Positions 26,573 to 46,456 of a DNA stretch of 56,414 nucleotides are shown here, one piece after another. Position 1 is the first letter of the stretch, and every line of letters begins with the position of its first letter. A model generated the notes under the pieces. That model worked only from the letters and a program-made list of their open reading frames with translations. It searched no databases and was not told where the DNA came from. Origin of the DNA: Anaerolineae bacterium clx_CAG2 (GTDB taxonomy: Bacteria; Chloroflexota; Anaerolineae; JAAEKA01); assembly GCA_014155705.1 (NCBI GenBank), contig JAAEKA010000039.1, positions 1 to 56,414 of the forward strand. Reading direction: 5' to 3'. Made by a program: the position numbers and the translations under genes.

Positions 26573-28168
26573 GTGCGACTGCAAGCCTGGCTGGCGCCTG
26601 GCGTCGTCTTTAGTCTGACGCTGGCAGTCTATGGGCTGACCGCCCCGACTGGCCTGACCTGGGCCCATGCCAGCGCCGACGGCGGTGATCTGATCACAGC
26701 CGCGCGCGTGCTGGGCGTGCCCCACCCCAGCGGCTACCCGACCTGGACGCTGTTGGCGGCGCTGTTCGATCAGGCGCCATTGGGCACGGCCGCATGGCGC
26801 GCCACCCTGTTGTCTATGCTCAGCGGCGCCACGGCCGCCGCGCTGGTGGCGGCTACCGTTCCCTGGCTGGCATCCCGCAACGACCCCGCTAGCACGGCGG
26901 GAGAACCTCGCTCCTTACGATCTTCTCCTGTCGTGCTTTTGTTATCTCTCGCGCCCGCGCTGGTCGCAGGGCTGGCGTTGGCCTTCGCTCCTTTACTTTG
27001 GGGCCAGGCCACCGTGGCCGAAGTCTACGCCTTGCACGCCTGTCTGGCCGCGGCCGCGCTGTGGGCGTTGGTACGCTGGCAGGCTTGCGGCGATGAACGT
27101 TGGGCCGCGGCCGCCGGGCTGTTCCTGGGACTGGGACTGGGCAACCACCTGACCACCGTCTGGCTGCTGCCGGCCGCGGGTATCGTGCTGTGGACGGGAA
27201 ATTCTCGCCGCCGCGGGCGAGCCAGCGCTGCCGTGGCGGCTGGCCTCGCGGCCGGGCTGCTGGTCTACCTCTATCTGCCTTTGGCCGCCGCGGGCGATCC
27301 CCCCGTCAATTGGGGCAATCCACGCACGCCGGATGGGCTGTGGTGGCTGGTATCGGGGCAACTTTACCGGGGCTACATCTTTGCCGTGCCGTGGCCCGAC
27401 GTGCCCGGCCGGCTGAGCGGCTGGGCGGCCGAGCTATGGCGCAGCTTTCTGCCCTGGGGCGTGGCCGCGGCGCTGCTGGGCATGGCGACGCTCTTTCAGC
27501 GCAACCGTCCTCTGGCAGCAGCCTTTTGCACCAGCCTGCTGCTGGGCCTGGTCTGGGCCGTGGGCTACAATACCAGCGATTCACTGCTGAGCTTGCTGCC
27601 CGGCTGGGTGATTCTGGCGCTGGCTCTCGGCGCTGGTGTGAGTACAGCCCTGAAGTGGCTGGCGAGCTGGAAACGCGGCGCGGCGCTGGTCGCTGCCCTG
27701 CTGGGCATTGCCTTGGCTGCAGCGCCGGTGGCCCTCCATTGGCAGGCGCAGAACCTGCACAACGATCAAACAGCCGAACAGTTTTACAGTCATGTGCTGG
27801 AGCACGCGCAGGCCGACGCCGTGGTCCTGACGATCGGCGACCAGGCTACCTTTGCCCTGTGGTACGGGCGCTATGGCCTGGGACTGCGGCCCGACGTGAC
27901 GCCAGTCAGTCGTGACCTGTGGGCGCTATCCAGCTACCGCGCCACCGTGGCCAGCCAGCACCCGGACCTGGCCGGATCAGCGCCGCCCGCTGATTGGGTC
28001 GATTTGGTGCAGGCTGCCGGGCAGCAGCGTCCGCTCTATTTGGCGCAGGCCGGGCTGGCGGATCCTCCCCATGCAGCCGGGGGCCAGCCTGCCCCCGCCC
28101 TTCCCGGCTACCGGCCGGAGTTAGTCTTGCAGGGGAATGGCTGGGCGCTATGGCGGTTGGATCATTGA
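26573..28168 (+). CDS. DUF2723 (TMEM260-like) polytopic membrane glycosyltransferase-like protein
   Basis: GTG start. N-terminal ADGGDLITAARVLGVPHPSGYP matches the DUF2723 signature (D.GEL...LG..HPPGYP), followed by many TM segments. Confidence 0.55.
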   Translation: MRLQAWLAPGVVFSLTLAVYGLTAPTGLTWAHASADGGDLITAARVLGVPHPSGYPTWTLLAALFDQAPLGTAAWRATLLSMLSGATAAALVAATVPWLASRNDPASTAGEPRSLRSSPVVLLLSLAPALVAGLALAFAPLLWGQATVAEVYALHACLAAAALWALVRWQACGDERWAAAAGLFLGLGLGNHLTTVWLLPAAGIVLWTGNSRRRGRASAAVAAGLAAGLLVYLYLPLAAAGDPPVNWGNPRTPDGLWWLVSGQLYRGYIFAVPWPDVPGRLSGWAAELWRSFLPWGVAAALLGMATLFQRNRPLAAAFCTSLLLGLVWAVGYNTSDSLLSLLPGWVILALALGAGVSTALKWLASWKRGAALVAALLGIALAAAPVALHWQAQNLHNDQTAEQFYSHVLEHAQADAVVLTIGDQATFALWYGRYGLGLRPDVTPVSRDLWALSSYRATVASQHPDLAGSAPPADWVDLVQAAGQQRPLYLAQAGLADPPHAAGGQPAPALPGYRPELVLQGNGWALWRLDH

Positions 28169-28234
28169 GGCGACCCGCGGACTGTGGGCTGCGGCACTTG
28201 CCAGAACGATCTCCCTGTGGTAGGTTACGAGACT

Positions 28235-30184
28235 ATGAGTGTAAGTCCTGTGATGGAATCGTCGAAGCAATCTGGCCGCCGGCTCTGGAGGCCGGTGTTG
28301 GCCGCAACGCTGCTGGTAATCGTGGCACTGGTGGCGCTGTGGGCGGTGCAAACCGCTCGCGCAGCCCGATCTGCGCTGGTCGAACTGCAAGGCTTGCAGG
28401 CTGTAGACCTCGTATCGCTGACCAGCCTCGATCCCGCTGACCTGGCCGACATGCAGGGGCGCTTTGCCCGATTGGAGGCCGATCTCACCACCATTGAGAC
28501 CCAGGCTGGTCCTCTGTTGCCCTTGACGCGTTCCCTCGGCTGGCTGCCTCGCTTCGGCGCTGAAGCACAGGCTGCACCTGAGTTGCTGCAACTGGCGCGC
28601 GGCGTGGCCACAGCCGGCCGCGCCAGCATGGACGGCGCCTATGTGGTGGCGCACGCTCTCAAGGGGCAGCCAGCCGACGGCAGCGCCCTGGCCCGGCTGG
28701 TTTCCGCGCTGGAGCAGTCCCAGCCAAGCTGGCAGGAGGCCGAGACGGCGCTGGCCCGGGTGGCGGACGCGCGCAGCCAGTTGGACCTGGACCAGCTCGA
28801 CCCACGCATTGCCGGCCAGTTGGAGCGGCTGGACAGCTACCTGCCCCTCTTACAGACGGGGTCAGCGCTGGCCCGTCTGGCGCCGGCCTTGCTGGGCGCG
28901 GGTGGCGCCAAGACCTATCTATTGCTCGCGCAGAACAGTGACGAGCTGCGCCCCACCGGCGGCTTTATAAGCGGCGTGGGCCTTCTGCCTATCGACCGCG
29001 GACAACTAGGCGAGATCGACTTCAAGGATAGCTACAGCGTTTACAATCCCAACGTGGATCACCCTTTGGCGCCGCCTGACCTGGAACAGACCATGGGCGC
29101 GCAGATGCTGCTCTTCCGTGATGCGAACTGGTCGGCAGACTTCCGAACCTCGGCCCGGGTGGCTCAGTCGCTCTACCAGTTGGACACAGGCGCACCGAGC
29201 GATGGTGTCATTGCCTTCGATCTCGAGGCCACGCGCCGGCTTGTCGCTGCTCTGCAGCCGCTGACTCTGCCCGGCTACCAACAGCCGCTGACCGGCGACA
29301 ACGTGCTGGTTGCCATGCGTGAGGTCTGGGCAGAGCCGCTGACCACTGAGAACACCGTGCGTGAGGCAGGCGGGACCGACTGGTGGCTGCACCGCAAAGA
29401 CTTCATGGGCGATCTGGCTGCTGCGGCCCGGTCCAGGTTGGAAACCGGTCAGGTGGACTTCGGCAAGCTGGCCCAGGCCATCTATAGCAGCCTGCAAGAA
29501 AAGCATGTGCTGGTGATGGTCAATGATCCGGCAACTGCGGCGCTGCTGGCCGAGGCAGGCTGGAGCGGTGTGGTCGATCCGGGCGCGAGCGACTTCCTGC
29601 TGGTGATCGACAGCAATGTCGGTTGGAACAAGGTCAACAGCGTCGTGCAGCGCACCACTAACTACACCGTCACTCCGCGACCCGACGGCAGTGCGCGGGT
29701 CGATCTGGAGCTGGTTTACCGTCATCAGGGCGAGGCTACGGGCGAGCCGTGCGTCCATGAGGCGCGCTACGGCGATACCTACGAGGACATGGCGCGACGC
29801 TGCTATTTCAACTACGTGCGCGTCCTGGCGCCGGCCGGCGCTCATCTTTCCAGCGCTGAAGGTTTCGAGCCGGCTGACGTCGCTACCCGGCCGGGCGAAC
29901 GCGGCGCCACACAGTTTGCCGGCAGCCTGGTGCTGCCTCCGGGCAACACCGCCCGCGTGCATCTGACCTATGACTTGCCGGCCGGTTTGATCGACGACGA
30001 CACGTATAATTTGCGCGTGCAGAAGCAGCCGGGCATTCCCGCCTGGCCGGTCAGGGTGCTGCTGGTCGATCCAGATGGCGTCTGGCAGCCGGTTGCGCCG
30101 GGCGGCCGGCGTACTGACGAGGGTGTGCAGGTGACCTTTGACCTGAGCAGCGACGTGGATGTGATCATGGCGCGGCGGCAGTAG
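28235..30184 (+). CDS. DUF4012 domain-containing membrane-anchored protein
   Basis: ATG 28235 (MSVSPVMESSKQSGRRLWRPVLAATLLVIVALVAL), one TM segment. YLLLAQNSDELRPTGGFISGVGLL is the characteristic DUF4012 motif. Confidence 0.6.
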   Translation: MSVSPVMESSKQSGRRLWRPVLAATLLVIVALVALWAVQTARAARSALVELQGLQAVDLVSLTSLDPADLADMQGRFARLEADLTTIETQAGPLLPLTRSLGWLPRFGAEAQAAPELLQLARGVATAGRASMDGAYVVAHALKGQPADGSALARLVSALEQSQPSWQEAETALARVADARSQLDLDQLDPRIAGQLERLDSYLPLLQTGSALARLAPALLGAGGAKTYLLLAQNSDELRPTGGFISGVGLLPIDRGQLGEIDFKDSYSVYNPNVDHPLAPPDLEQTMGAQMLLFRDANWSADFRTSARVAQSLYQLDTGAPSDGVIAFDLEATRRLVAALQPLTLPGYQQPLTGDNVLVAMREVWAEPLTTENTVREAGGTDWWLHRKDFMGDLAAAARSRLETGQVDFGKLAQAIYSSLQEKHVLVMVNDPATAALLAEAGWSGVVDPGASDFLLVIDSNVGWNKVNSVVQRTTNYTVTPRPDGSARVDLELVYRHQGEATGEPCVHEARYGDTYEDMARRCYFNYVRVLAPAGAHLSSAEGFEPADVATRPGERGATQFAGSLVLPPGNTARVHLTYDLPAGLIDDDTYNLRVQKQPGIPAWPVRVLLVDPDGVWQPVAPGGRRTDEGVQVTFDLSSDVDVIMARRQ

Positions 30185-30206
30185 CCGCATTCGAGGAGAA
30201 CGCAAC

Positions 30207-30722
30207 GTGCGAAGACGACTATCCCTGGCGCTGTTGTTGGCGCTGACCCTGCTGGCGGCGCTGGCATTTACTGTCCATAGCCCGGCCGCTGCCAGTCCAG
30301 CAGATGCCCCGGCGGCCCAGCAGCCCGAAGGGCGCCCTGGACAACCCATCATCATTCGCTGGTCCACAGAGACTGAGGTCAACACCGCGGGTTTCAACGT
30401 CTATCGCGCGCCTGGCGAAGATGGGCCGTGGGAGAAAATCAATCAGCGGCTGATTCCCGGATCCCCCGACCCGCTGCGCGGCGGTAGCTATGTTTTTACC
30501 GACACCAATGTCATCTCTGGCATCGCTTACTGGTATGAGTTGGAGGAAGTGGAGTTGGGCGGCCGCGCTACCCGCCTGGAGCGCACCACGGCCACAGCCA
30601 AAGGGCAAGGGCTGTGGCCATTGGACGGCTTGCAATGCACCGGCGGCCTGTCGATGTTGCTGATTTTCAGCCTGGGCATGGTTGTGGTTGGACGCCGCAA
30701 GAGGTTGTATGAGTCTTCCTGA
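30207..30722 (+). CDS. Small secreted Ig/FN3-like protein with C-terminal TM anchor + RRKR
   Basis: GTG 30207 after GAGGAG. Signal peptide MRRRLSLALLLALTLLAALAF, beta-rich IIIRWSTETEVNTAGFNVYRA...YWYELEEV, tail LQCTGGLSMLLIFSLGMVVVGRRKR. Confidence 0.55.
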   Translation: MRRRLSLALLLALTLLAALAFTVHSPAAASPADAPAAQQPEGRPGQPIIIRWSTETEVNTAGFNVYRAPGEDGPWEKINQRLIPGSPDPLRGGSYVFTDTNVISGIAYWYELEEVELGGRATRLERTTATAKGQGLWPLDGLQCTGGLSMLLIFSLGMVVVGRRKRLYESS

Positions 30723-32373
30723 GCTATTATTGATCAGTCCTCCGGACTACGAAACGCGCGAGTTCCGCGGCGCTCAACCGCTGGGCATCGCCTACCTGGC
30801 GGGCATGCTGCGCGCCATAGGCATCACAACCGAGCTGCTGGACGCCAATGTCGGCGGCCCTATGCCTTTTGAGCAGTTTGCGGCTCGGGTCGAGAACTTC
30901 GTGGCTACTGTCAGACAGCATGGCGGCCGGCCGGTGGTAGGCGTATCGGTGGTATCGCAGGTCATCGCCACAGCGGCTGCCTTGGCCGCGCGCATCAAGA
31001 CCGTCGCCCCCGACGCGTTGGTGGTTATCGGCGGCTACCACCCTACCTTTGCCGACCGCGAGATTCTGGAGGACTTTGCAGATATCGACTTATGCGTGCG
31101 CGGCGAGGGCGAGCAGACGATCGTTGAGTTGATGAAGCACTGGCGGGCGGCCGGAACTGCGGACCCGCCGTTGCAGCCCGGTCGGATCGACTGGGGACAC
31201 ATCCTGGGCCTCACCTGGCGGCAAGGGGAGCAAATTATCGCTAACCCCAGCCGGCCCAACAACGTCAACCTGGACGCGTTGCCCTTTCCAGCGCGTGACC
31301 TGTTGCCGCCGCTCCACGCCTACGCGCCCTACGCCGACACCGTGGACGGCAAAATGCGCCTCAAGGCGTCGATGATCTCCAGTCGCGGCTGCCCCTTTCA
31401 CTGCAACTTCTGCTCGATCATTGCCTTCTACGGCGACGCAGGCGGGAAGCCCTGGCGCGGCCGTAGCGTCGAGAACGTAGTGGCCGAGATGGTCGAGTTG
31501 GCCGACCGGGATGGCGCCAGCCACTTCGAGTTCCAGGACGATAACTTCTTCGTGCGAGCCGACCGCGCCCTGGCCATCGTGGAGCAGTATGCCCAGACTG
31601 GGCGCGACTTCTCCTTTGCCTTCCTGACCCGCGCCGATCAGGTGGTCAAGGGAGAACGCTACTTCCCTGCCCTGCGCAAAGCCGGGCTGCGCTACGTCAG
31701 TGTAGGCATCGAGAGCGGCAGCGAAGCCTCGCTGGAGCGCATGGTCAAGCAGACGGGCGTCGAGATCAATCGCCGCGCTCTGCAAATCCTGCACGACAAC
31801 GATGTAGCTGCCCAGGTCGAGTTTATCATGTTCGAACCAGGCAGCACCCTGGACGACCTGCGTGATAACCTGCGCTTCATCGAGCAGCAAGGGCTGTTCG
31901 GCTATTTCCCGCCGTTGATCTTCGGCAAGCTGCTCTTGATGCCTGGTACGCCCGCGCGCGAGCAGTATCAGCGTGAGCAGGGCGTGAGTGGCAGCATCCA
32001 TCAGTCGCTATCCTATGACTTTGGCGATCCCCGTGTGAGCGAAGTTTACGAGCTGTTGGGTGACTTTCAGCGCCGCCTGGGCAATCCATGGTTTGAGCTG
32101 GCCTTCAACCTGCTGGACGGCATACCGGCCCTGGAGATCGACCTACAGCGCAATCAGAGCGGCGACGCGACCAACGGCAAGCTCAACGTGCGCCAACTGG
32201 CTCAACTCAAACTGGAGTTCTTTGCCCTGACCCGCATCCCCTATCAGTTGATGCGTGAGGGGCTGGCGGCGGCAGCGCAGGAGACGACAGCGGCCAGCCA
32301 TGCAAGCTTGCTGGCCAAGGCCGAGGCCGAGTTGGCCAACGTCAGTCAAAGGGTGCGGCAACTCCGACCGTAA
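30709..32373 (+). CDS. B12-binding domain radical SAM protein
   Basis: ATG 30709 overlaps the upstream gene by 14 nt. N-terminal Rossmann-like B12-binding region (LLISPPDY...GIAYLAGMLR...VVIGGYHPT) and radical-SAM cluster motif SSRGCPFHCNFCS. Confidence 0.75.
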   Translation: MSLPELLLISPPDYETREFRGAQPLGIAYLAGMLRAIGITTELLDANVGGPMPFEQFAARVENFVATVRQHGGRPVVGVSVVSQVIATAAALAARIKTVAPDALVVIGGYHPTFADREILEDFADIDLCVRGEGEQTIVELMKHWRAAGTADPPLQPGRIDWGHILGLTWRQGEQIIANPSRPNNVNLDALPFPARDLLPPLHAYAPYADTVDGKMRLKASMISSRGCPFHCNFCSIIAFYGDAGGKPWRGRSVENVVAEMVELADRDGASHFEFQDDNFFVRADRALAIVEQYAQTGRDFSFAFLTRADQVVKGERYFPALRKAGLRYVSVGIESGSEASLERMVKQTGVEINRRALQILHDNDVAAQVEFIMFEPGSTLDDLRDNLRFIEQQGLFGYFPPLIFGKLLLMPGTPAREQYQREQGVSGSIHQSLSYDFGDPRVSEVYELLGDFQRRLGNPWFELAFNLLDGIPALEIDLQRNQSGDATNGKLNVRQLAQLKLEFFALTRIPYQLMREGLAAAAQETTAASHASLLAKAEAELANVSQRVRQLRP

Positions 32374-32424: not shown

Positions 32425-33504
32425 CTACGGTTGAAGAATTTCTGCGATGACTTGAGGGATCTGTTGCCGATCGCTGCCCAGCAGCAGACGGTAGACCGGT
32501 ATCTGCTCCACGGCCTGGGCCAGGAATTCCAGATGTTGCCGGGCCAACGCCACGTCTTGCAGATCGACGCTGTAAAACAGAAGATCGCTGAGCAGGGAGG
32601 CTTTGTTGGCCGGCGCGAGAGTGGTGTGCGCCTGATCAGTGATCTCCGGAGCGAGAATGGCGCTCACCTGCCCGCGCAAGGCTACACTGTTGGGGTAGGC
32701 CTCGGAGAGGATGACTTGACGCTTGCCGGTGTGGCTGCGCAGAGGGGAGAGGTATGGCGCCAGTTCTGGAAACCAGGCTGCTGTCTTGTCGGTCACATCC
32801 AGGGTGCTGAGCAGGGCGATTACATCGACGGTTCCAGGCTGCGCGCGCTGCAGCAAGGTGGTATCGTCGCCCAGAAATTGGAGCCCCGCGGCCACACAGG
32901 TCAGCATGGTGGTGGTTTTGCCCGCGCCTGACTGGCCGGCGATCAGTACAGCCCGGCCGGCGTGTCCGATAGCCGAGGCATGAATCAAATGTAGCCCCCG
33001 GCGGCGCAGATGCTGGTAGAGGGTAATGAAGATCGACTGTTTGTAGTGGCGCAGGGGCCAGTGAACAGGCGCATGCACCCATCCTAACGAGCGCCCCTCG
33101 TTCTGGTTGAGAACAGTTAACAGCACATCCCCGTGGCGCGTAAAGAGATACGGCCCCTCCTGGTACTCACTGGTCTCCTGCTCGGACGATGTGTGCTGGG
33201 GCAACCAGGGTAGGTCAGGCAGCAGCTGCTCTCCCAGATCGACCAGATCGACGGTGAAATCCGCAGCAAAGCTTGCCCCACCGATCGGACAGGCCAGCGG
33301 GCGCACCATCTGCCGGCGCAAGGTCTGCGTCGTCGTGCGCAACCTGACCAGGCTGTCTCCGATCTGAAGCGTTGCCTCCTCGACGGAGGAACTGGTATAA
33401 ATTTGTTCGAAGGTCGCCGCCAGTCTGTCATAGATCTGTGCAGCATGTGGCGGCAAGGGATCCATCTGGGAGGATAAACGCAACGAAGGAAAGCTGGAGA
33501 CCAA
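32425..33504 (-). CDS. HPr kinase/phosphorylase C-domain-like P-loop protein (HprK-related, RiPP-associated type)
   Basis: HLIHASAIGHAGRAVLIAGQSGAGKTTTMLTCVAAGLQFLGDDTTLL matches the HprK C-terminal domain Walker region. TTG start 33504 with GAAGGAAAG just upstream (start uncertain). Confidence 0.65.
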   Translation of the reverse strand: MVSSFPSLRLSSQMDPLPPHAAQIYDRLAATFEQIYTSSSVEEATLQIGDSLVRLRTTTQTLRRQMVRPLACPIGGASFAADFTVDLVDLGEQLLPDLPWLPQHTSSEQETSEYQEGPYLFTRHGDVLLTVLNQNEGRSLGWVHAPVHWPLRHYKQSIFITLYQHLRRRGLHLIHASAIGHAGRAVLIAGQSGAGKTTTMLTCVAAGLQFLGDDTTLLQRAQPGTVDVIALLSTLDVTDKTAAWFPELAPYLSPLRSHTGKRQVILSEAYPNSVALRGQVSAILAPEITDQAHTTLAPANKASLLSDLLFYSVDLQDVALARQHLEFLAQAVEQIPVYRLLLGSDRQQIPQVIAEILQP

Positions 33505-33605
33505 CTTTCCTTCTTACGAGCAAGGTAACTTGCACTTTTGCCGGCAAAAAAAACCGGGCTATAGGTTTCGGTCCCTATTGGGGCCAAGCGATGGTACAGG
33601 CGTAC

Positions 33606-33731
33606 TTAGTTGCCCGGCATCAGCCAGTTGGCCCCATTGGAAACAGTGCCCAACGTAACCTTCTGGAGTCGCTGATATTTGGTCAAGGTCGGTGTCTGGT
33701 AGGTCTTCTTGACAGTGGTGTTCTGATTCAC
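33606..33731 (-). CDS. Unannotated 41-aa precursor-like peptide with lasso-type leader motif: MNQNTTVKKTYQTPTLTKYQRLQKVTLGTVSNGANWLMPGN
   Basis: GTG 33729-33731 lies 7 nt downstream of GGAGG; TAA stop at 33606-33608. Same frame as the tail of track ORF 33606..33917. Relative to the Gly after Thr-Leu, the leader has Tyr-17, Pro-14, Leu-12 and Thr-2. It lies between the PqqD-like and HprK-like genes. Confidence 0.6.
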   Translation of the reverse strand: MNQNTTVKKTYQTPTLTKYQRLQKVTLGTVSNGANWLMPGN

Positions 33732-33822
33732 GATGATACCTCCGTGTTGGGTTTGTTGCGCTTGGAGCGCTGCTGACAGAACGACGGTTACACACAGTAG
33801 CCGTGTAGCGGTTCCGAACGAA

Positions 33823-34107
33823 TTATCGAGTGACAACCAGCCCTTCATCGGCCAATTTCTTGACCAAACGGAGGACATCAGCGCCAGCCTGTTCACTGTC
33901 CACATTGTACTCTTCAAGGACCAAATCTACCAAGTCCTGAATTGTCTTTGACCCGTCAATACTCTCCCAGATGCAGGTACCTACGCTGTCCAAGCTGAAG
34001 TAATCACCGCTAGACAGATGAATCAGTAAAGCTTCACTATCCACCACGCGATCTATAATCTGATCACTGTTCTTGGCAACCAATGTATCCAGAGAGAGAC
34101 GGGACAT
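33823..34107 (-). CDS. PqqD-family protein (RiPP recognition element)
   Basis: 94 aa. ALLIHLSSGDYFSLDSVGTCIWESIDGSKTIQDLVDLVLEEYNVDSEQAGADVLRLVKKLADEGLV follows the PqqD pattern (G.yy.Ln..g..iW..idG..t..ei...l...y.v....a..Dv..f...L...gl). Confidence 0.75.
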   Translation of the reverse strand: MSRLSLDTLVAKNSDQIIDRVVDSEALLIHLSSGDYFSLDSVGTCIWESIDGSKTIQDLVDLVLEEYNVDSEQAGADVLRLVKKLADEGLVVTR

Positions 34108-34152
34108 TTGAGTAATGGGACGAGAAGAAACCTCAATTTACAAGCAAGTGAG

Positions 34153-34182
34153 ATTATAGCACAGGCCGCAAACATTTGTCAA
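34153..34182 (-). promoter_or_regulatory. Near-consensus sigma70 promoter (TTGACA-18-TATAAT) driving the PqqD / peptide / kinase operon
   Basis: Minus-strand TTGACA (34177-34182), 18-nt spacer, TATAAT (34153-34158). It lies about 45 nt upstream of ATG 34107. Confidence 0.55.
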
Positions 34183-34244: not shown

Positions 34245-34973
34245 TCAGATGCCAAACGGCCCCAGGTACTTATCGGGCGTCCATTCCTGCGGCGGCGGGC
34301 TGAGATGACCGTTGCCGTTGGCATGGAAGCCGCGCAGTTCCATGATCTCTGCCTCCAGCGCCATCATCCGGTCGGAAAAGGCCTTGAGCGCCTCGGCTGT
34401 GGCGTCGGGCATGACATTGTGCTGCAGATCGCGCTCAGGATCTGACGCCTGCAGCCAGCCATCACGATGGCGCACGCGGCCGGGTACGCCAACCACCACC
34501 GACTCCGCCGGTGTGTCTTTGACCACTACCGAGTTGGCGCCGATGCGGCTGTGGTCGCCGACGCTGATCGGGCCCAGTACCTTCGCGCCCGCCCCCAGCA
34601 CCACCGAGTCGCCGATGGTGGGATGACGCTTGCCCTTCTGCCAACTCACACCGCCCAGAGTGACGCCGTGATACATGGTCACGTTGGCGCCGACCTCCGC
34701 CGTCTCCCCGATTACCACACCCATGCCGTGATCGATGAAGAATCCCGGACCGATGCGCGCACCCGGATGGATCTCGATGCCGGTCACAAAGCGGCTGGTC
34801 TGGGAGATCAGCCGGCCCAGCAGCTTGAAGTCACGTTGCCACAGCCAATGGGCCAGGCGGTGCAGCCAGATGGCCTGCAGCCCCGGATAGGCTAGAAGCA
34901 CTTCCAGCTTGCTGCGCGCCGCCGGGTCGCGGTCAAAGACAGCGCGCATGTCATGACGTAGGGTGGTGAACAT
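34245..34973 (-). CDS. cysE: Serine O-acetyltransferase
   Basis: [32 protein letters not shown] and hexapeptide repeats [28 protein letters not shown]. It lies 14 nt downstream of cysK. Confidence 0.85.
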
Positions 34974-34987
34974 GGCAGGCTCTTTCG

Positions 34988-35926
34988 CTAGGCCAGGTCG
35001 GCATACAGCACGGTGCTGAGGTAGCGCTCGCCGTTGGACGGGATGATGACCACGATGCGTTTGCCCGCGCTCTCCGGCCGGCGTCCGACTTGCAGCGCGG
35101 CCCAGACGGCTGCGCCTGAGGAGATTCCTACCAGAATACCCTCGTCACGGCCAACCTGGCGCGCTGTGGCAATGGCGTCGTCGTTGCTGACACGAATGAC
35201 CTCGTCGATGATGTCCGTGTTGAGCACGCCAGGCACGAAACCCGCACCGATGCCCTGGATCTTGTGGGGGCCTGGTTGGCCACCGCTGAGCACTGGCGAG
35301 TCGGCCGGCTCCACCGCGACAGCTTTGAAGTCAGGGTTGCGAGCCTTGAGCACCTCGGCCACGCCAGTGATGGTGCCGCCCGTGCCAACGCCGCTAACCA
35401 GGATGTCCACCTGGCCATCGGTGTCGCCCCATATCTCTTCGGCCGTGGTACGGCGATGGATCGCAGGATTGGCGGGATTCTCGAACTGCTGGGGGATGAA
35501 GTAGCGTGGATCGGCGGCGGCCATTTCAGCCGCCGCGGCGATAGCTCCGCGCATGCCCTGTGCGCCGGGCGTCAGCACCAGGTCGGCGCCGTAGGCCCGC
35601 AGCAGTTTGCGCCGCTCCATGCTCATGGTGTCAGGCATGACCAGCACGCAGCGGTAGCCCTTGGCCGCGGCAACGAAAGCCAGGCCGATGCCCGTGTTGC
35701 CGCTGGTTGGCTCCAGAATGATCGTCTCAGGTCCGATCTTGCCGGCCGCCTCAGCCGCCTCGATCATGCTCAGGCCAATGCGGTCCTTAACGCTGCTGGC
35801 CGGGTTGAAGAACTCCAGCTTGAGCAGGATTTCGGCCACCGTGCCGGCCTCTTGGGCGATGCGGTTGAGCCGCACCAGCGGTGTGCTGCCGACCAGCTCG
35901 GCGATGTTGTTGTAGATGCGTGACAT
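34988..35926 (-). CDS. cysK: Cysteine synthase A (O-acetylserine sulfhydrylase)
   Basis: ATG 35924-35926 after [35 protein letters not shown]-lysine motif [19 protein letters not shown]. Confidence 0.85.
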
Positions 35927-36026
35927 GATGGTTTTCCTTCCAAAGATGACAGGTTTGCGCATACGTGCGTAACGAGTGATGCGTAACTCGTCACCCGAGC
36001 CTTGCGTCCTTGCGCAGATGCCTCCG

Positions 36027-36461
36027 TTACGGCTTACTGTTTACGTTCGCTTGACCAACTTGCGCCAGCAAGCGCTCGGTCGTCGCCAGCCCGTGATTGA
36101 TGGCCACCGGCCGGCGTTGGCTGTCCAGCACCACCGTAGTGGGCACGGTCATGACGTGGTAGTAGTCGGCCAGGCGCTGGTGCTCGACTGCATCCAGCTT
36201 CAGCACCTGCAAGCCGCTGAGTTGTTGCTGTACCTGCGCCAGAGCGGGCGTCTGCTGGAAGCGGCACTGCGCGCAGGATGGTGTGGTGAAGTAGAGCACG
36301 GCCGGCGCGGCGGACAGCAATAAAACCGCCAGCTCGGCTGGACCGTGTGGGTCGGCCAGAGCCAGACGCTGCGTTTGTTGCTGCAAGCGCAGCCGCCAGA
36401 CGGCATAAGCCGTAGCCAGCAGCAGTGCAAACGCAGCAAGGATGATCAATCGGTCAAACAT
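36027..36461 (-). CDS. Membrane-anchored thioredoxin-fold protein (CxxC)
   Basis: ATG 36459-36461 with GGAG 6 nt upstream. N-terminal TM segment, then [12 protein letters not shown] (CxxC). Confidence 0.65.
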
Positions 36462-36569
36462 GGTAGTCTCCAAAAGCCCATCGCTTAGGCCGGGTTTTGC
36501 TCAGCACCCCGGAGCTTTACCGGAGTGGATCTGACCGAGGCCCCCAGCGACCGGACACAGCGCCAGCGG

Positions 36570-37040
36570 CTACGCTCCCTGCGGCGTCTGCCACCAGGGT
36601 AAGTTGGCGGCAATGCCCCGCCGGGCCAGTTGATAATACAGGAAGCAGCCCATGCAGAAGCCCAGGAACAGGTTGACGGCGGCCAACGCCACCACAATGC
36701 CTGTCAAGGCCCAGCCCAACAGCGGCAGGCTGGCCCACAGCGCGGCGCTGGCCAGGGTCAGCATCAGAGCGCCGACGCCTTGGGCGAACAGGTGCGGTCG
36801 CAGGTCGTCGGCCTTAGGCGCAGGCCGCACGATACCCAACGGCTTGAGCACATGCTGATAGACCCGCTTGAACAGCCCGGCCTGCGGCGCAAAGGTTCCG
36901 ATCCACATCACAGCAGCCACGAAGACCACCAGCCAGGGCTGATTCAGCACAAAGGCCAATGCCAGCAGGGCGATAATCGATGCCTGATTGAAGCGCAAAG
37001 CGCTGTAGTCGACCCTATTCGCAGTGTTGTCCATCGTCAT
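36570..37040 (-). CDS. DUF4395 domain-containing membrane protein
   Basis: 156 aa, four hydrophobic segments. NRVDYSALRFNQASIIALLALAFV... resembles DUF4395, which is often adjacent to sulfur/redox genes. Confidence 0.45.
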   Translation of the reverse strand: MTMDNTANRVDYSALRFNQASIIALLALAFVLNQPWLVVFVAAVMWIGTFAPQAGLFKRVYQHVLKPLGIVRPAPKADDLRPHLFAQGVGALMLTLASAALWASLPLLGWALTGIVVALAAVNLFLGFCMGCFLYYQLARRGIAANLPWWQTPQGA

Positions 37041-37066
37041 ATCCTTCTTTCAATCTCAGAGTCAAG

Positions 37067-37393
37067 TCATCCAGTGAACAGATAGTTGCCATCATCGTCG
37101 CGAGCCAGGGCCACAATGTCCATAATCGCTTCCCGGTCCAACGGCCCATAGAGGTGGGGAAAGCGACCATCGGGCGTCTCGTCCCATTGCACCGGCGCCC
37201 CCAACAGCGCCTCATCGATCGCCAGTGCGACCAGGTCCACGATATCCGCATAGAATGCGTTGGCCACCCACGTGACCTGATCCGGCGTGGCCGAGAGATG
37301 AATGAAGCCTTCCTCAAACAGACTGGCCGGCGCGTAAGGCTCATCGGCGGGCTGGCCTTGGAAGTGGAATTGAGAAACCAGGTGATAGAGCAT
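37067..37393 (-). CDS. DUF952 domain-containing protein
   Basis: ATG 37391-37393. EEGFIHLSATPDQV...LVALAIDEALLGAPVQWDETPDGRFPHLYGPLDREAI matches the DUF952 signature (FIH.S...ID...L....W......FPHLYGPL). Confidence 0.7.
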   Translation of the reverse strand: MLYHLVSQFHFQGQPADEPYAPASLFEEGFIHLSATPDQVTWVANAFYADIVDLVALAIDEALLGAPVQWDETPDGRFPHLYGPLDREAIMDIVALARDDDGNYLFTG

Positions 37394-37486
37394 AGTTAGT
37401 GGTACACAAAGGAAAGAAGGGAAAGGAAGGAAACAAGGGCCGCTGGGGAGGGCGCTTCTGGCCTTGTCTACTCGTCTACCCATCTT

Positions 37487-38449
37487 CTACTCGAATAGTC
37501 CTAAACTCAAGTACTTCGCGCCGCCGTCGGGCAATAAGGTGACGACCACCCCGCTGTCCAGTCTGTTGGCGACTTGCAGCGCGCCATGGACGGCAGCGCC
37601 GGCGCTGAAGCCGACCAGCAGGCCAGCCTCGCGGGCCAGCCGGCGAGTCATCTCCCATGCGTCGCCAGCCTCGATGGGTAAGCTGCGATCGACCAGGGAC
37701 GGGTCGAAGATGCCGGGCACGAGGGAACTCTCCAGGTGCTTGAGGCCCTCGATGACCTGCAACTCATCGGCTGGCTGCAGGGCGACCAGTTGGATGGCAG
37801 GAGAAGTCTCCTTCAGTCGCCGGCCCACGCCCATGAAGGTGCCGGTGGTGCCCAGGCCGGCCACGAAGTGCGTGACGCGGCTGTTGGTCTGGCACAGAAT
37901 CTCGGGACCTGTCGTATCGTAGTGGGCGCGCCAATTGCTGTCGTTGTTGTACTGGTCAGGGTAGAAGTAGCCGCCAGGTTGGGCGGCCACGATCTCGCGT
38001 GCCAGACGGATAGCGCCGTCGCTGCCCTCAAGCGGATCGCTCTCGATGATCTGCGCGCCATAGGCTCGGGCCAACGCCTTGCGTTCCACCGTCACATTGG
38101 CCGGCATGACCAGATGCACGGCGTAGCCCTTGGCCGCGCCGATCAGCGCGTAGCCGATGCCCGTGTTGCCGCTGGTGGCGTCGATGATCGTCTGGCCGGG
38201 CGTCAACCGGCCGGTTTGCTCTGCATCCTCAATCATGCGCAGCGCGGCCCGATCCTTGACCGAGCCGCCGGGGTTGAACCACTCGGCCTTGGCGTACAGT
38301 TCAACGCCCGGCCGGTCCACCAGGAAGCTCAGGTCCAGCAATGGCGTGTTGCCAATCTGCTCCAGGATGGACGCCGGCCGGTAAGGCTGCTCTGGCGCCA
38401 CGGCCCAGACAATGTTTTCGCTGCGTGTCAATACAAGAGGTAAGGTCAT
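37487..38449 (-). CDS. cysM: Cysteine synthase B-like PLP enzyme (CysM-type, candidate thiocarboxylate-dependent)
   Basis: ATG 38447-38449 with GGAG about 10 nt upstream. [35 protein letters not shown]. Operon context with ThiF-rhodanese and MoaD-like genes. Confidence 0.65.
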   Translation of the reverse strand: MTLPLVLTRSENIVWAVAPEQPYRPASILEQIGNTPLLDLSFLVDRPGVELYAKAEWFNPGGSVKDRAALRMIEDAEQTGRLTPGQTIIDATSGNTGIGYALIGAAKGYAVHLVMPANVTVERKALARAYGAQIIESDPLEGSDGAIRLAREIVAAQPGGYFYPDQYNNDSNWRAHYDTTGPEILCQTNSRVTHFVAGLGTTGTFMGVGRRLKETSPAIQLVALQPADELQVIEGLKHLESSLVPGIFDPSLVDRSLPIEAGDAWEMTRRLAREAGLLVGFSAGAAVHGALQVANRLDSGVVVTLLPDGGAKYLSLGLFE

Positions 38450-38565
38450 AGTGCCATCTCCGTTGCTACCGGGGGACTGGGAGGACCTGGAGGAACTGCG
38501 AAGAACTTGCATCAAGATCTTCGTGAGTTTCCCTCAGCTTCCTCGTTCCCTTCATTTCCCTTCTG

Positions 38566-39762
38566 TCATTCCCTCGCCGGCATGCCGCAGAACTGCTCGT
38601 AGTCGATCAGCTCGGTGAGGCTTGGCGCGTCGCCGCAGACCGGGCAAGCCGGGTTGCGACGGATGTTGAGGGTGCGGAAGCTCATCTCCAGGGCGTCAAA
38701 GGTCAGCAGGCGGCCGATCAATGGCTCACCCTTGCCCAATATCAGCTTGATGGCCTCGACAGCCTGGATCGAGCCCACGATGCCCGGCAGCACGCCCAGC
38801 ACACCAGCCTCAGCGCAGCTTGGCACCTCGCCCGGCGGCGGCGGGTCGGGATAGAGGCAACGATAGCACGGCCCCTGGCTAATCCCCTCCTCCGGCGCGC
38901 CGGGGTGGTAGATCGTCACCTGGCCCTCGAACATGAAGATGCTGGCGTCCACCAGCGGCTTGCGCAGGAAGTGGCAGGCGTCATTGACAAGGTAGCGGGT
39001 CGGGAAGTTGTCGGAGCCGTTGAGCACGATATCGTAGTCCTGGATGATCTGCAAGGCGTTGGCGCTGGTGATCGGCTCGCGATGGGGCACGACGGTGACA
39101 TCAGGGTTGATCTCGGCGAGCCGGGCTTTGGCCGACTCGACCTTGGGCTTGCCGATCCAGCTTTCGCCGTGCAGGATCTGTCGCTGCAGGTTGCTCAAAT
39201 CAACGGTGTCGTAGTCCACGATGCCCAGCGTTCCTACACCGGCGGCGGCCAGGTAAAGCGCGGCGGGCGAACCCAGCCCGCCTGCGCCGATGAGCAGCAC
39301 CTTGGCGTCCAACAGCTTGCCTTGCCCTTCTTCACCCACGTCAGGCAGGAGCGTGTGGCGGCTATAGCGGATCTTCTGCTCGGCAGTCAGTTTACGCGGC
39401 ACGGTAACCGGCAGACCGGCGCTGCGCCAGCCGCCGAAGCCGCCGATCAGCGACTCCACACGGCTGTAGCCCATCTCCTGCAGGTTGCGCGCGGCCAGCG
39501 CCGAGCGCACACCGCCCGCGCAGTACAGCACGATGGGTGTGGCGGGGTCGTAGGCGTGTTGCTCGATGCGCAGCTCCAGAAAGCCGCGCGGGATGAAGAC
39601 CGCGCCCGGCACGTGGCCTTGCTCGAATTCGTCTCGCTCGCGGATGTCGATCACCAGCGGGCTGGATCCGTTGCCCAGGCGTTGCTCGAGCGCTTGCGGT
39701 GTGATTTCGATGATTTGGCTTTTGGCCAGGGCGATCAGTTGATCGCGGTTGATTCTTGTCAT
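38566..39762 (-). CDS. Rhodanese-ThiF/MoeB-type adenylyltransferase/sulfurtransferase (MoeZ-like, but rhodanese domain is N-terminal)
   Basis: N-terminal LVIDIRERDEFEQGHVPGAVFIP...VLYCAGGVRS (rhodanese active-site Cys). Then RYSRHTLLPDVGEEGQGKLLDAKVLLIGAGGLGSPAALYLAAAGVG (ThiF Rossmann fold), with CYRC and CPVCG zinc motifs. Confidence 0.75.
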   Translation of the reverse strand: MTRINRDQLIALAKSQIIEITPQALEQRLGNGSSPLVIDIRERDEFEQGHVPGAVFIPRGFLELRIEQHAYDPATPIVLYCAGGVRSALAARNLQEMGYSRVESLIGGFGGWRSAGLPVTVPRKLTAEQKIRYSRHTLLPDVGEEGQGKLLDAKVLLIGAGGLGSPAALYLAAAGVGTLGIVDYDTVDLSNLQRQILHGESWIGKPKVESAKARLAEINPDVTVVPHREPITSANALQIIQDYDIVLNGSDNFPTRYLVNDACHFLRKPLVDASIFMFEGQVTIYHPGAPEEGISQGPCYRCLYPDPPPPGEVPSCAEAGVLGVLPGIVGSIQAVEAIKLILGKGEPLIGRLLTFDALEMSFRTLNIRRNPACPVCGDAPSLTELIDYEQFCGMPARE

Positions 39763-39788
39763 GGTTGGTGTGCTCCGATATCTCTCGC

Positions 39789-39832
39789 AACCCGTAACCC
39801 GGAGACTCTTGCCGCAATTCCGGTTACGGGTT
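39789..39832 (-). promoter_or_regulatory. Intercistronic hairpin between the MoaD-like and ThiF-like genes
   Basis: aacccgtaacccgg (39789-39802) pairs with ccggttacgggtt (39820-39832): 13 bp with one bulge and a 17-nt loop, inside a 75-nt spacer. Confidence 0.4.
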
Positions 39833-39837
39833 ACGGA

Positions 39838-40113
39838 TCACGCTCCGCCCGCCATAGCCGGCACAATCGACACCCTGTCACCGGCCGCCAGCGGCGTGTC
39901 CGCGCCCTGCAGCGTGCGGATCTCGTCCTCATTGACGAAGACGTTGATAAAGCGCTTGATCTTACCGTCAGCGTCCAGCAGGCGCTCGCCGATGCCGGGA
40001 TAGCCGGCCTCCAGGTTGTGCAGCAGCACATCGACGGTATCGCCGGCTACCTCGACTTTGGCTTGATTGGCGGTCAGGCGGCGCAGAGGCGTCGGAATCA
40101 GTACAGTTGGCAT
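39838..40113 (-). CDS. MoaD/ThiS/CysO-family sulfur-carrier protein ending in Gly-Gly-Ala
   Basis: ATG 40111-40113 after AGAAAGGA. 91 aa: MPTVLIPTPLRRLTANQAKVEVAGDTV...GDRVSIVPAMAGGA-stop (beta-grasp carrier pattern with one residue after GG). Confidence 0.7.
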   Translation of the reverse strand: MPTVLIPTPLRRLTANQAKVEVAGDTVDVLLHNLEAGYPGIGERLLDADGKIKRFINVFVNEDEIRTLQGADTPLAAGDRVSIVPAMAGGA

Positions 40114-40217
40114 GAAACGGGTCCTTTCTTGGAACTCAAACTTCGGAGGCAGCCAGTTCAAGCGAATACCGGGTCGGCTACGGCGGCTTCCAGAATTTCG
40201 GGCGATTGGGTTGGCCG

Positions 40218-40260
40218 CAAACAAAAAAGCCCATCCACGGTTCTTGAACCGTGCGATGAG
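40218..40260 (-). terminator. Rho-independent terminator/attenuator upstream of the sulfur-carrier operon
   Basis: Minus strand reads CTCATCGCACGGTTCAAGAACCGTGGATGGGC followed by TTTTTTGTTTG. The GC-rich stem has about 14 bp with one bulge. Confidence 0.6.
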
Positions 40261-44953: not shown

Positions 44954-46456
44954 TCAGACTTGTTGGTCAGACGATTGACTAATGACGGTCAAGATTTCCT
45001 TGCAGTACCCCTCTGCCAATTGGCGTTCGTATTCTTGAAGCATCCAATCCCTATTGTGAGCAAGCGGATTCCTAAATTTGGCAAGCAACGTCGAACGTTG
45101 ATCCCAGTAATTCTTGTCTTTTCCGAAGAAGGGTTGGTAGATGTTCCAGGCAGCAAAGATGATTGCGAAAAGATCCCGCGGGTAGGTGAAATCGAGGAGA
45201 TTCCTTGATGCACGACTTCCGAAGGCTATCTCCTCTTTCTGCTGTGCTTGCCGACAACTGTCAAATGTTGCCCGTAGATTGGGATGGGCCTTTTCCATCT
45301 TCGAAACCCACTGATCACCATGCTGTTTGTTCATGGTGTTGGTGATTAGCCGCCTCAACGCGAGTTCAGTCTCTTTCCAGAGAGGCCATAGGTCGACCTG
45401 TCGCTCAATCAGCCTAAGATACGTCTGAAAATGGGGTGAAAATGCTGCATATGTATCTCCCGTTGTTGGATGTATTAGTCCGTAGCGCTGGAATTCTTCG
45501 ACTTCACTTTGCTTCACGTCATAAACAGGTCCGAAGAGAATCTGAAGTAGCTTCTCAAGAGTATAGTCTTCCCTTAGCAAATCAACCATTCGGTCATACT
45601 GGTCCAGGAATGAGTGTTCTAAATCCTCAGCCACACTATCCATCTGTATGCGTCCAGTCAAGCGATACTGTTCAACCATCTCGTAGCCAAGCATCTCAAG
45701 GAGAAAGGGATGACCACCCGCATAGAATCGCATCATGGCTCTTGTTTCATCGTTAAGAGCAATACCAATCGACCCGAGACGAGAAATTAGAAGATCAACG
45801 TCTGACTCCGTGAACATGCCAAGGTAGTGCTTGTGAAAAATACCGTCCAGCGTAGAAATCGCTTGCGTCTGAAGTTCAATATCACGGATTGAGCGACGAG
45901 ATGCTGTGATCAACGTCACTCGCCATTCTGGACGGTACGAAAGTTCGCGCAGACCTTGAAATCCTGAAATATCACCTTTGAACAGATGACGAGCATGGTC
46001 AAATTCGTCCAGAATAAACCAGACTCTTATGCCATCTAGTCGAACTTTCTCAAAGAATCGCTCTATACGAGCATACCCTCCGCTCCAAGATGCATCATCC
46101 TTTAGAGCGCGATCGGCAACCCGCTGGATTGGTGTAGATAGGCGATCAAGGTCCTCTAGCTCATCGGTACAGCGAACAACCATGGATTGAAAGAATTGTG
46201 CCGAGGAGTCATATTTCGCTAAGTTGATCCAGATGGGAACGATACTCCGTTGGTGCAGGTCGTGCTTGCGTTCCATTATGGATTTGTAAAGCAAACTGCT
46301 CTTGCCTATACGAGGCTCTCCGATGATTGCCAGATTGCCAGCTTCGATTGGACGAATCACTCTGTTTTCCACCACTCGCAGGTCTGATTCGCGGCCAATG
46401 AAGCGATCTTGGTGAACAATGATGCCGTAGTCTGAAAAAGGATTCTCGATATTCAT
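44954..46456 (-). CDS. P-loop NTPase (AAA_16/ATPase_2, STAND-like) with C-terminal HEPN-like (Swt1-type Rx4H) domain
   Basis: ATG 46454-46456 lies 11 nt after the upstream stop, with AGGAAG between. FIGRESDL...IIGEPRIGKSSLL (Walker A), VWFILDEFDH (Walker B), C-terminal LLAKFRNPLAHNRDW (Rx4H). Confidence 0.7.
   Translation of the reverse strand: MNIENPFSDYGIIVHQDRFIGRESDLRVVENRVIRPIEAGNLAIIGEPRIGKSSLLYKSIMERKHDLHQRSIVPIWINLAKYDSSAQFFQSMVVRCTDELEDLDRLSTPIQRVADRALKDDASWSGGYARIERFFEKVRLDGIRVWFILDEFDHARHLFKGDISGFQGLRELSYRPEWRVTLITASRRSIRDIELQTQAISTLDGIFHKHYLGMFTESDVDLLISRLGSIGIALNDETRAMMRFYAGGHPFLLEMLGYEMVEQYRLTGRIQMDSVAEDLEHSFLDQYDRMVDLLREDYTLEKLLQILFGPVYDVKQSEVEEFQRYGLIHPTTGDTYAAFSPHFQTYLRLIERQVDLWPLWKETELALRRLITNTMNKQHGDQWVSKMEKAHPNLRATFDSCRQAQQKEEIAFGSRASRNLLDFTYPRDLFAIIFAAWNIYQPFFGKDKNYWDQRSTLLAKFRNPLAHNRDWMLQEYERQLAEGYCKEILTVISQSSDQQV

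Follow-up and report, generated by a model that had tools for sequence, protein, structure and literature searches.

Contig JAAEKA010000039.1 of the Anaerolineae bacterium clx_CAG2, an NCBI metagenome-assembled genome, carries an operon of a PqqD-family gene, a short precursor-like open reading frame (ORF) and an HPr-kinase-like gene, which converges on the gene of a B12-binding radical S-adenosylmethionine (SAM) enzyme. The window analysed here is this entire contig of 56,414 bp. We consider it probable that the locus is a vertically conserved maturation cassette for a peptide of the RiPP type (ribosomally synthesised and post-translationally modified peptide) in Anaerolineae/Caldilineales-type Chloroflexota, which depends on a RiPP recognition element (RRE), and that it is not a lasso cluster. 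It has the generic layout of an RRE-dependent RiPP pathway, that is, a short precursor gene, whose leader is conserved and whose core varies more, beside an RRE and enzymes. The original prediction had offered two readings, a decayed or split lasso cluster or an RRE-dependent pathway with other chemistry (kinase plus B12 radical SAM enzyme), and the comparative data support the second.

To gather relatives, we followed homologues of the kinase to their contigs, scanned GTDB genomes, searched metagenomes with the peptide and ran a profile of the peptide; together these yielded more than 45 loci. Almost all of them belong to metagenome-assembled genomes of Anaerolineae, Caldilineales, Chloroflexia or Chloroflexota. 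Candidatus Amarolinea dominans (GCA_016707735.1) is among the hosts, GCA_037045275.1 and GCA_041391245.1 are further assemblies with the family, and inheritance of the cassette is vertical, single-copy and lineage-wide. According to the tblastn table, the order PqqD, peptide, kinase is kept, and a PqqD gene is found, in every locus that extends far enough. The radical SAM gene adjoins the kinase gene convergently in all 33 loci with enough downstream sequence; in 31 of these the gap measures 23-309 nt, and the other two have gaps of 745 nt and 2.9 kb. The co-variation that the original prediction had proposed to examine is thus present in both subgroups of the family. In group 1, whose arrangement is that of the window, the kinase is 44-83% identical to the window protein, and the radical SAM gene is accompanied by genes for a 160-180-aa secreted protein, a DUF4012 protein and a TMEM260-like GT-C glycosyltransferase. 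In group 2 the kinase is about 36% and the radical SAM enzyme about 50% identical to those of the window; the genes for the secreted protein (p171), DUF4012 and TMEM260 are missing, and a GH2 gene lies on the opposite strand after the radical SAM gene. Since group 2 keeps the radical SAM gene without the envelope genes, this gene apparently travels with the trio and not with the latter.

The 41-codon precursor ORF (33606..33731, minus strand) encodes MNQNTTVKKTYQTPTLTKYQRLQKVTLGTVSNGANWLMPGN. Direct reading of the window confirmed its position and strand as first proposed, together with its GTG start at 33731, which follows the Shine-Dalgarno sequence GGAGG (33739..33743, minus strand) after 7 nt. 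This block is conserved in relatives, and the ORF occupies the same place, with the same Shine-Dalgarno sequence, in each family locus. The start codon is GTG in the group 1 subgroup and ATG in the divergent group 2; translated in frame, the Shine-Dalgarno-plus-start block reads GGIIV(N) in group 1 and GGINM(N) in group 2, and its retention in both supports the start assignment. For 20 leader codons and the first 4 core codons in 27 distinct DNA versions, the ratio of nonsynonymous to synonymous variation (pN/pS) is 0.17, and variable sites at codon positions 1, 2 and 3 number 11, 6 and 20. The small ORF is a real gene under purifying selection, and the conservation on which the original prediction depended is seen throughout the collected loci. 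A peptide profile search returned 40 database homologues of the precursor. An exhaustive profile search of 1.84 billion representative proteins gave just 11 clusters (50% identity), none of which resembles a lasso precursor by sequence; the peptide family is therefore small and specific. In one locus (L051:7760-8141) the PqqD and kinase genes enclose a tandem pair of precursor genes, for peptides of 49 and 46 aa.

If the boundary between leader and core is placed as in lasso peptides, residues 1-27 (MNQNTTVKKTYQTPTLTKYQRLQKVTL; 33651..33731, minus strand) would form the leader. Counting back from Gly28 gives Y-17, P-14, L-12, Q-8 and T-2, with Gln replacing the motif Gly at -8, which is the spacing that had been described beforehand. 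Across 36 peptides the leader block K-x-QRLQKVTL-x-T is invariant, as are the leader Tyr and Leu, even though the PqqD proteins of these loci are down to 33-40% identity. The leader/precursor matches the lasso_cyano model NF033528 weakly (17.4 bits, E 0.003). RREs from several classes of RiPP, PqqD and one of the sactipeptide type among them, recognise YxxP-type sequences (PMC12710340); because non-lasso RREs share it, the motif is not diagnostic of lasso peptides (PMC12710340). The putative partner of the leader is the PqqD-family protein of 94 aa, a discrete RRE (33823..34107, minus strand). Its assignment to PF05402 was borne out by a full-length match above the gathering score (E 7e-20, 71.5 bits). 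Among the NCBIfam models it matches lasso_PqqD_Bac (lasso B1) best, with 58.5 bits at a cut-off of 80, followed by lasso_PqqD_Strm with 40.8 bits (cut-off 70) and ScmD with 37.9 bits.

The putative core, GTVSNGANWLMPGN, lies with the stop codon at 33606..33650 (minus strand) and, as originally stated, holds no Asp or Glu. At least seven distinct family cores are free of acidic residues (GTVSNGANWLMPGN, GTVSPGPNWLLPGN, GTVSPGPSWLLPGQ, GTITNGGWLLPGQ, GTLSPSPWLGPGQ, GTVTPPPLSNWLAPGQ and ATTPPPLNFPNALPGQ), and where Asp or Glu is present, its placement spans core positions 5 to 16. Because acidic residues are absent or scattered, a macrolactam that joins the N-terminal amine to a side chain at position 7-9 cannot be the shared modification of the family. 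The family pattern consists of GT[VLITA][ST], a Pro/Gly-rich linker of 3-13 residues and a terminal W-L-x-P-G-x. Thr2 of the core never varies, and group 1 has Ser or Thr at position 4; both end motifs are fixed, while the linker differs by about 10 residues in length and the Trp stands anywhere from position 8 to about 20. In many cores, runs of Pro come after Thr/Ser, and the precursors end mostly in PGN or PGQ, those ending in Ser being a minority. The group 2 core reads ATTP[P/S]PLNFPNALPG[Q/E].

The residue before the Trp is Asn in the clade of the window and Asp in many relatives; elsewhere it is Lys (GTVSESTKW), Ser (GESW, GDSW, PGPSW), Gly (GTITNGGW), Pro (SPSPW, AEPW), Thr (QDTW) or Ala (PDAW). 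In some relatives the Asp before Trp is found at core position 8, 9, 10 or later. A look at position 8 in relatives, suggested with the original prediction, gave a divided answer, with Asp in some and Asn, Lys, Ser, Gly, Pro or Thr in others. Asn8 as a stand-in for a ring-forming Asp was dropped, since the position is also occupied by Lys, Ser, Gly, Pro, Thr and Ala and its distance from Gly1 varies. A triceptide-like W-x-x cyclophane was dropped as well; the enzymes that make it are of the SPASM type, and W-L-M/L/Q does not match group 2 (F-P-N).

No lasso enzyme was found beside the cassette. Asn_synthase (PF00733) and transglutaminase/Transglut_core3 are absent from Pfam scans of essentially all sizeable ORFs of the window, and tblastn with a bona fide lasso B2, the transglutaminase-like leader protease, gave no match in the window or in any family locus. 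A scan of all loci for the SGGxDS PP-loop gave three short matches of 60-217 aa, none in an ORF of cyclase size, and the precomputed Pfam tables of the relatives list neither B2 nor the Asn-synthetase-like cyclase (C) in the surrounding sequence (up to +-10 kb), not even on the contigs of 232 kb and 802 kb. The earlier statement that the window lacks both enzymes is therefore correct, and the situation in which relatives always carry B2 and C genes together with Asp/Glu-containing cores, which would have pointed to a degraded lasso locus, is encountered on neither count across the more than 45 loci. As present function, a decayed or split lasso cluster was rejected in view of the purifying selection, the constant gene set and the lack of a conserved acidic residue; this part of the original prediction did not hold.

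A split cluster, in which B2 and cyclase encoded elsewhere in the genome would convert the peptide into a (phosphorylated) lasso peptide, appears very unlikely to us. It would explain the exact YxxPxL...Tx spacing of the leader with its weak lasso_cyano match, the lasso B1 model as top NCBIfam match of PqqD, and the Asp at core position 8 or 9 in some relatives. It would also suit the nearest outgroup of the kinase (E 1e-30; 34% identity in the catalytic domain), which adjoins PqqD and a B2 scoring above the NCBIfam threshold for lasso_biosyn_B2, and the enzyme search reached just this contig of the genome. A lasso product is nevertheless hard to reconcile with the many acid-free cores, that of the window included, with acidic residues that are scattered where they occur, and with a linker of changing length between fixed end motifs; in addition, B2 and C are missing around the cassette even on contigs of 232-802 kb, and YxxP-type sequences are common to non-lasso RREs (PMC12710340).

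Far less credible still is a non-functional relic, i.e. a degraded cluster with a spurious or decaying small ORF. Expected partner genes are indeed missing in the window and the G+C content of the locus is lower than that of the flanks, but the pN/pS of the peptide gene, the 12-residue leader block that is invariant where PqqD has diverged to 33-40% identity, the intact catalytic motifs and the perfect consensus match of promoter and Shine-Dalgarno sequence are not those of a decaying locus. The promoter, of the sigma-70 type (TTGACA-18-TATAAT with TG extension; 34153..34182, minus strand), lies upstream of the PqqD gene and agrees with the consensus at 12 of 12 positions, more than the near-consensus match first noticed; the region holds 4 promoter-like sites versus 1.0 +/- 1.0 in shuffles. 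The low G+C content, also noted before, amounts to 0.48-0.53 over PqqD and peptide versus about 0.62-0.66 in the flanks, and to 0.47 for the PqqD gene versus 0.61 for the contig. We compared window positions 33606-34107 with the same genes in L001, L005, L011, L013, L018, L020 and L043. In these relatives the PqqD gene has a G+C content of 0.47-0.56 versus 0.60-0.67 for each contig, and PqqD plus precursor are 5-14 points under the contig mean in every relative examined; kinase and radical SAM genes are equal to or slightly over the contig average. Low G+C is thus a conserved trait of the family and, for this reason, not evidence of recent transfer or decay.

Between the peptide and kinase genes, the transcript contains a hairpin of 12-13 bp followed by a T-rich tract (33485..33513, minus strand), which was listed as terminator-like. 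In 12 distinct versions its consensus energy is -18.2 kcal/mol and every pair is kept, two of the 12 with compensatory exchanges (A-U to G-C in 5 of the 12 sequences). When the window operon and one group 2 intergenic region were scanned with Rfam, no family rose above noise, and the hairpin was unmatched. Probably it is an attenuating terminator or a transcript stabiliser. A stem-loop 3' of the precursor gene that damps read-through to the enzyme genes is a common design of RiPP operons. Two more small hairpins are found just upstream of the conserved one (about 33530-33560). In group 2 the spacer between peptide and kinase genes has about 350-400 nt (L016:2282-2660, L019, L042, L044, L048) and holds two strongly conserved blocks, roughly GACCCTTCGCCTGCTGGGAACGTTACCA and GAACGAGAGTGCGTGCAACGGGGCTTCGCCAAGTCACG, which are unlikely to be an N-terminal extension of the kinase because of in-frame stops in some loci.

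The third gene of the operon (32425..33465, minus strand) encodes a ScmC-family/HPr-kinase-like P-loop protein with its stop at 32425. The longest ORF begins within the hairpin, at TTG 33504; ATG 33465, 13 codons further in, is the likely start since the homologue consensus begins at M14 and residues 1-10 have a predicted local confidence (pLDDT) below 50. The match to Pfam Hpr_kinase_C is weak (22 bits, under the gathering score of 33.3), and the precomputed Pfam annotation gives PF27840 'ScmC'. H175, S192-G-x-G-K-T197 and D213-D214 are invariant in the family and align to the catalytic His, the P-loop (Walker A) and the DD motif of HprK. An AlphaFold2 model built from 25 homologues (pLDDT 90, predicted TM score (pTM) 0.86) was matched by Foldseek to ATP-dependent phosphoenolpyruvate carboxykinase (PEPCK) over both domains (E 4e-10, TM about 0.5) and to HPr kinase (E 3e-7), and a sequence search of solved structures gave just weak HprK/PEPCK P-loop matches with E of at least 1e-3. 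Judged by the model, the protein would be a phosphotransferase with the two domains of the PEPCK/HprK fold; it has no RRE-like domain, and none of the solved structures is closely related to it. Of the HprK-type P-loop enzyme originally proposed, the fold and the catalytic motifs stood, whereas the score for Hpr_kinase_C stayed below its threshold and the precomputed Pfam family is ScmC. With a full-length PqqD match, a kinase fold and invariant catalytic motifs, the enzymes of the cassette look functional. HPr-kinase homologues phosphorylate linear RiPP precursors (PMC8498205), and those characterised in association with lasso peptides phosphorylate a C-terminal Ser shared by their precursors (PMC8498205).

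The similarity of the kinase to the ScmC proteins of SCM-like (SynChlorMet) clusters is confined to the surroundings of the P-loop. The cluster of its lasso-B2-associated outgroup (L008:6947-12360) has, besides PqqD and B2, an NTP_transf_5 gene and no Asn-synthetase-like cyclase. Upstream, a 25-codon ORF (L008:6690-6770, plus strand; MKKKLYVKPELTDLGLLRLVTKYSF) has the full lasso leader motif (Y..P.L...G.....T) with just 3-4 residues past Thr-2, and between this ORF and PqqD lies the gene of a 731-aa protein with no Pfam or NCBIfam match. This cluster could be another non-lasso use of lasso machinery.

The constant partner of the operon, a class-B (B12-binding) radical SAM enzyme (30682..32373, plus strand), has an N-terminal B12-binding domain (PF02310, E 3e-19) and a radical SAM core (PF04055, E 1e-15) and carries the motif CPFHCNFC, of the form CxxxCxxC. 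The database entry has 554 aa, and the true start is probably at about 30709. Its stop at 32373 and that of the kinase gene at 32425 leave the gap of 51 nt reported originally. The enzyme reaches no NCBIfam equivalog; the best is BchE with 155 bits versus a cut-off of 481, and the other top similarities, all far under their cut-offs, are to a CUAEP-tail radical SAM enzyme, ArsL, a P-methyltransferase and the RiPP enzyme ApyD. It has no SPASM domain and no recognisable RRE. The next homologues (37% identity) are found in clusters with ScmC-family and PqqD genes in different gene orders, which also carry SPASM radical SAM enzymes, NTP_transf_5, ABC transporters and a small protease; a relative at 35% identity lies alongside a second radical SAM gene, a Cys-rich 50-aa ORF and ABC transporters.

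It could be argued that PqqD and the HprK-like enzyme alone produce a phosphorylated linear peptide and that the radical SAM gene belongs to the neighbouring envelope operon. We hold this to be unlikely, albeit the most probable of the rival explanations. The radical SAM gene is on the opposite strand and is the terminal gene of the plus-strand string in group 1, where its longest ORF overlaps p171, and its best NCBIfam similarities are to enzymes that are not of the RiPP type (BchE, ArsL, HpnJ/R). Yet in group 2, where the envelope genes are missing, it still converges on the kinase gene at a distance of 28-246 nt, its distant relatives are embedded in other PqqD/ScmC or radical SAM-peptide clusters, and it has no recognisable RRE itself, with a discrete RRE gene lying close by.

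With these components, the following course of events can be envisaged for the cassette. The strong promoter would drive the PqqD-precursor-kinase operon, and the hairpin after the precursor gene probably reduces read-through into the kinase gene. PqqD would bind the leader at Y-17, P-14 and L-12 and present the core to the two enzymes, which have no RRE of their own. The ScmC-family kinase would most likely phosphorylate a hydroxyl group in the N-terminal core motif, that is, Thr2 and/or Ser/Thr4, and the B12 radical SAM enzyme most likely C-methylates or otherwise modifies an unactivated carbon, either in the Thr/Val/Pro-rich part or in the Trp-Leu-x-Pro-Gly motif. Alternatively, a radical cross-link between the two fixed end motifs would also fit a linker of free length. 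[quoted passage not shown] Export and leader removal may use the pair of Peptidase_C25 proteins and the ABC-2 transporter encoded upstream in most relatives, for which this contig has no genes; a specificity of the gingipain type would be in keeping with the invariant Arg-7 and Lys-4.

Several observations weigh against an RRE-dependent cassette of this kind. The radical SAM gene is convergent and hence not co-transcribed with the PqqD-precursor-kinase trio, and in group 1 it ends the TMEM260-DUF4012-p171 string and overlaps p171, so that lineage synteny could explain the adjacency there. The kinase-like protein scores under the curated cut-offs of every named family, and the known lasso kinases (paeninodin/ThcoK/SyanK type) use a C-terminal Ser, while the precursors of this family mostly end in Asn or Gln. 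Group 2 cores have Phe where group 1 has Trp, and therefore an indole-specific reaction is unlikely. B2 and C genes could lie elsewhere in the genome, as the window is a single contig. Finally, a 59-aa precursor homologue with a nearly identical leader (KKPYSVPSLIKYQRLQKVTLGTVS) was seen in Candidatus Woesebacteria of the candidate phyla radiation (CPR) (L049:3559-3738 and L050:5244-5423); its core is long and unlike the family cores. This homologue lies directly after a PMT_2 GT-C glycosyltransferase gene, with no PqqD, kinase or radical SAM gene nearby, and the peptide may therefore have a role that is independent of these enzymes.

A further rival explanation places the peptide mainly in cell-surface biology, e.g. 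as an exported Thr/Pro-rich substrate that is O-glycosylated by a GT-C enzyme or processed by sortase-like C25 peptidases; the RRE, kinase and radical SAM steps would be preparatory, and the product would not be of the antibiotic type. We rate this as improbable, more so than a pathway of the kinase alone. The locus is always embedded among genes for envelope or secreted proteins (Peptidase_C25, ABC-2 transporter, TMEM260-like/PMT_2, DUF4012, CARDB, Glyco_hydro_cc), many cores carry Thr/Ser and then Pro runs, the vertical, single-copy and lineage-wide conservation would suit such a role, and the Woesebacteria homologue is directly downstream of its PMT_2 gene. On the other hand, a specific GT-C link had to be discarded, since comparison of the Woesebacteria PMT_2 with the TMEM260-like protein of the window revealed no specific similarity; the glycosyltransferase is absent in group 2 loci, the subclade of the window has no C25 and ABC genes nearby, and the association with envelope genes may be lineage synteny alone.

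The locus can be compared with several known systems. With the paeninodin-type lasso clusters (A, B1/PqqD, B2, C, the HPr-kinase homologue K and a transporter) the family shares the YxxPxL...Tx leader spacing, a discrete PqqD/RRE that among the profiles matches lasso B1 best, if below its cut-off, and an HPr-kinase-fold gene beside the precursor gene. In contrast to them, it has neither B2 nor an Asn-synthetase-like cyclase in the window or the 45+ loci, its cores vary in length and have no conserved Asp/Glu at positions 7-9, its precursors mostly do not end in the C-terminal Ser that the known kinases need (PMC8498205), and its constant partner is a B12 radical SAM enzyme. The SynChlorMet (SCM) cassette comprises ScmC (HprK-like), ScmD (PqqD-like) and the two radical SAM/SPASM enzymes ScmE and ScmF (TIGR04248-04251). 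Common to both is the triad of a ScmC-family P-loop protein, here in PF27840, a PqqD-like chaperone and a radical SAM enzyme, and the closest outgroup relatives of the window B12 radical SAM enzyme sit in SCM-like clusters. However, the window proteins score 23 bits versus 125 with TIGR04249 (ScmC) and 37.9 versus 100 with TIGR04248 (ScmD), the only radical SAM enzyme is B12-binding and free of SPASM, the precursor is not Cys-rich, and the kinase has an extra N-terminal PEPCK-like domain.

The HPr-rel-A system also pairs an HprK-related kinase (TIGR04352, kinase A) with a PqqD-family chaperone (TIGR04353), and the TIGR04352 alignment spans the whole C-terminal domain of the window kinase (residues 172-342). 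At 30.9 bits (cut-off 200) and 16.9 bits (cut-off 35), respectively, the window proteins are not members of these families. Clavusporin (mpc: MpcB, MpcC, precursor, peptidase and transporter) resembles the family in its class-B radical SAM enzyme, a short Thr/Val/Pro-rich, linear and Cys-free peptide and a small separate partner protein (PMC10849626), a likeness in features of the systems. It differs in that the partner is DUF5825 rather than PqqD, in having no kinase, in its actinobacterial host and in its leader. In the searchable literature we found no description of this gene set, and nothing relevant on ScmC or SynChlorMet either. Comparison thus gives the case a solid basis, but RRE clusters of the orphan type are frequent.

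As for its origin, the outgroups of the radical SAM enzyme in SCM-like clusters are the reverse of the situation for the kinase, whose outgroup is beside a lasso B2. Judging from these relationships, the locus would be explained most simply by a leader/RRE/kinase module that descends from a lasso cluster, has lost B2 and C and has come to be linked with a class-B radical SAM enzyme. In evolutionary terms the connection with lasso peptides is real, as the outgroup of the kinase indicates, and the 'decayed lasso' of the original prediction thus contains some historical truth, although the present locus is a functioning unit under selection and of a different kind. It is tempting to go a step further. 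More tentatively, and with somewhat less than even confidence, we propose that the family represents an undescribed RiPP class, found mainly in filamentous Chloroflexota (Anaerolineae, Caldilineales, Ca. Amarolinea), in which a lasso-derived module and a B12 radical SAM enzyme act on a bipartite core, i.e. an N-terminal G-T-V-S/T and a C-terminal W-L-x-P-G joined by a Pro-rich linker of free length. The chemistry of such a class could be phosphorylation plus C-methylation, or a radical cross-link of the conserved ends. Because the family is vertical, single-copy and located among cell-surface genes, a physiological role (envelope, filament or signalling) rather than that of an antibiotic is suggested.

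Lasso-type leader motifs and PqqD/HprK pairs serve as markers in genome mining, and the family shows that they are separable from lasso chemistry and can be retained for another pathway; this bears on annotation as well as on the evolution of RiPP pathways by module exchange. The triad of ScmC/HprK-like protein, PqqD and radical SAM enzyme has been catalogued since the SCM cassette of TIGRFAMs and is still functionally uncharacterised, and the four-gene version described here, with its identifiable non-Cys precursor, is a compact and testable entry to ScmC function. The hosts include abundant filamentous Chloroflexota of activated sludge, e.g. Ca. Amarolinea, with a poorly understood cell-surface and filament biology, and many of the family loci derive from activated-sludge samples.

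On the plus strand ahead of the radical SAM gene, genes for the TMEM260-like GT-C glycosyltransferase, the DUF4012 protein and the 171-aa secreted protein occupy 26573..30722; their membership in the cassette is uncertain. The end of the 171-aa gene (30207-30722) overlaps the longest-ORF start of the radical SAM gene. The 171-aa protein has a signal peptide, one beta-rich domain and a hydrophobic/basic C-terminal tail (...LQCTGGLSMLLIFSLGMVVVGRRKR) that resembles a sorting signal, and a sortase gene is present at 15598-16533 of the window. It is about 30% identical over about 77 aa to a 348-aa protein that is encoded between the two Peptidase_C25 genes of relatives (L001:4892-5938, minus strand).

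Upstream of PqqD, most loci of both groups have two Peptidase_C25 genes and often an ABC-2 transporter gene, and the subclade of the window (the window, L010 and L023-L026) has cysE at this place instead; tblastn found no C25 or ABC homologue in the window. In this subclade a sulfur-metabolism string, at 34245-40224 (minus strand) of the window and directly upstream of the cassette, takes the place of the Peptidase_C25/ABC genes of the other members. Pfam identified in it a serine acetyltransferase (cysE-like), a thioredoxin-like protein and a DUF4395 protein; by eye, the translations look like two CysK/CysM-like proteins, a MoeB/ThiF-rhodanese fusion and a ThiS/MoaD-like carrier ending in GGA. 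Further along the contig, 44954-55012 (minus strand) encodes a protein with AAA_22 and HEPN_Swt1, a 1620-aa protein with TPR and STAND NTPase domains and a CHAT-domain protein, possibly with a function in defence or signalling.

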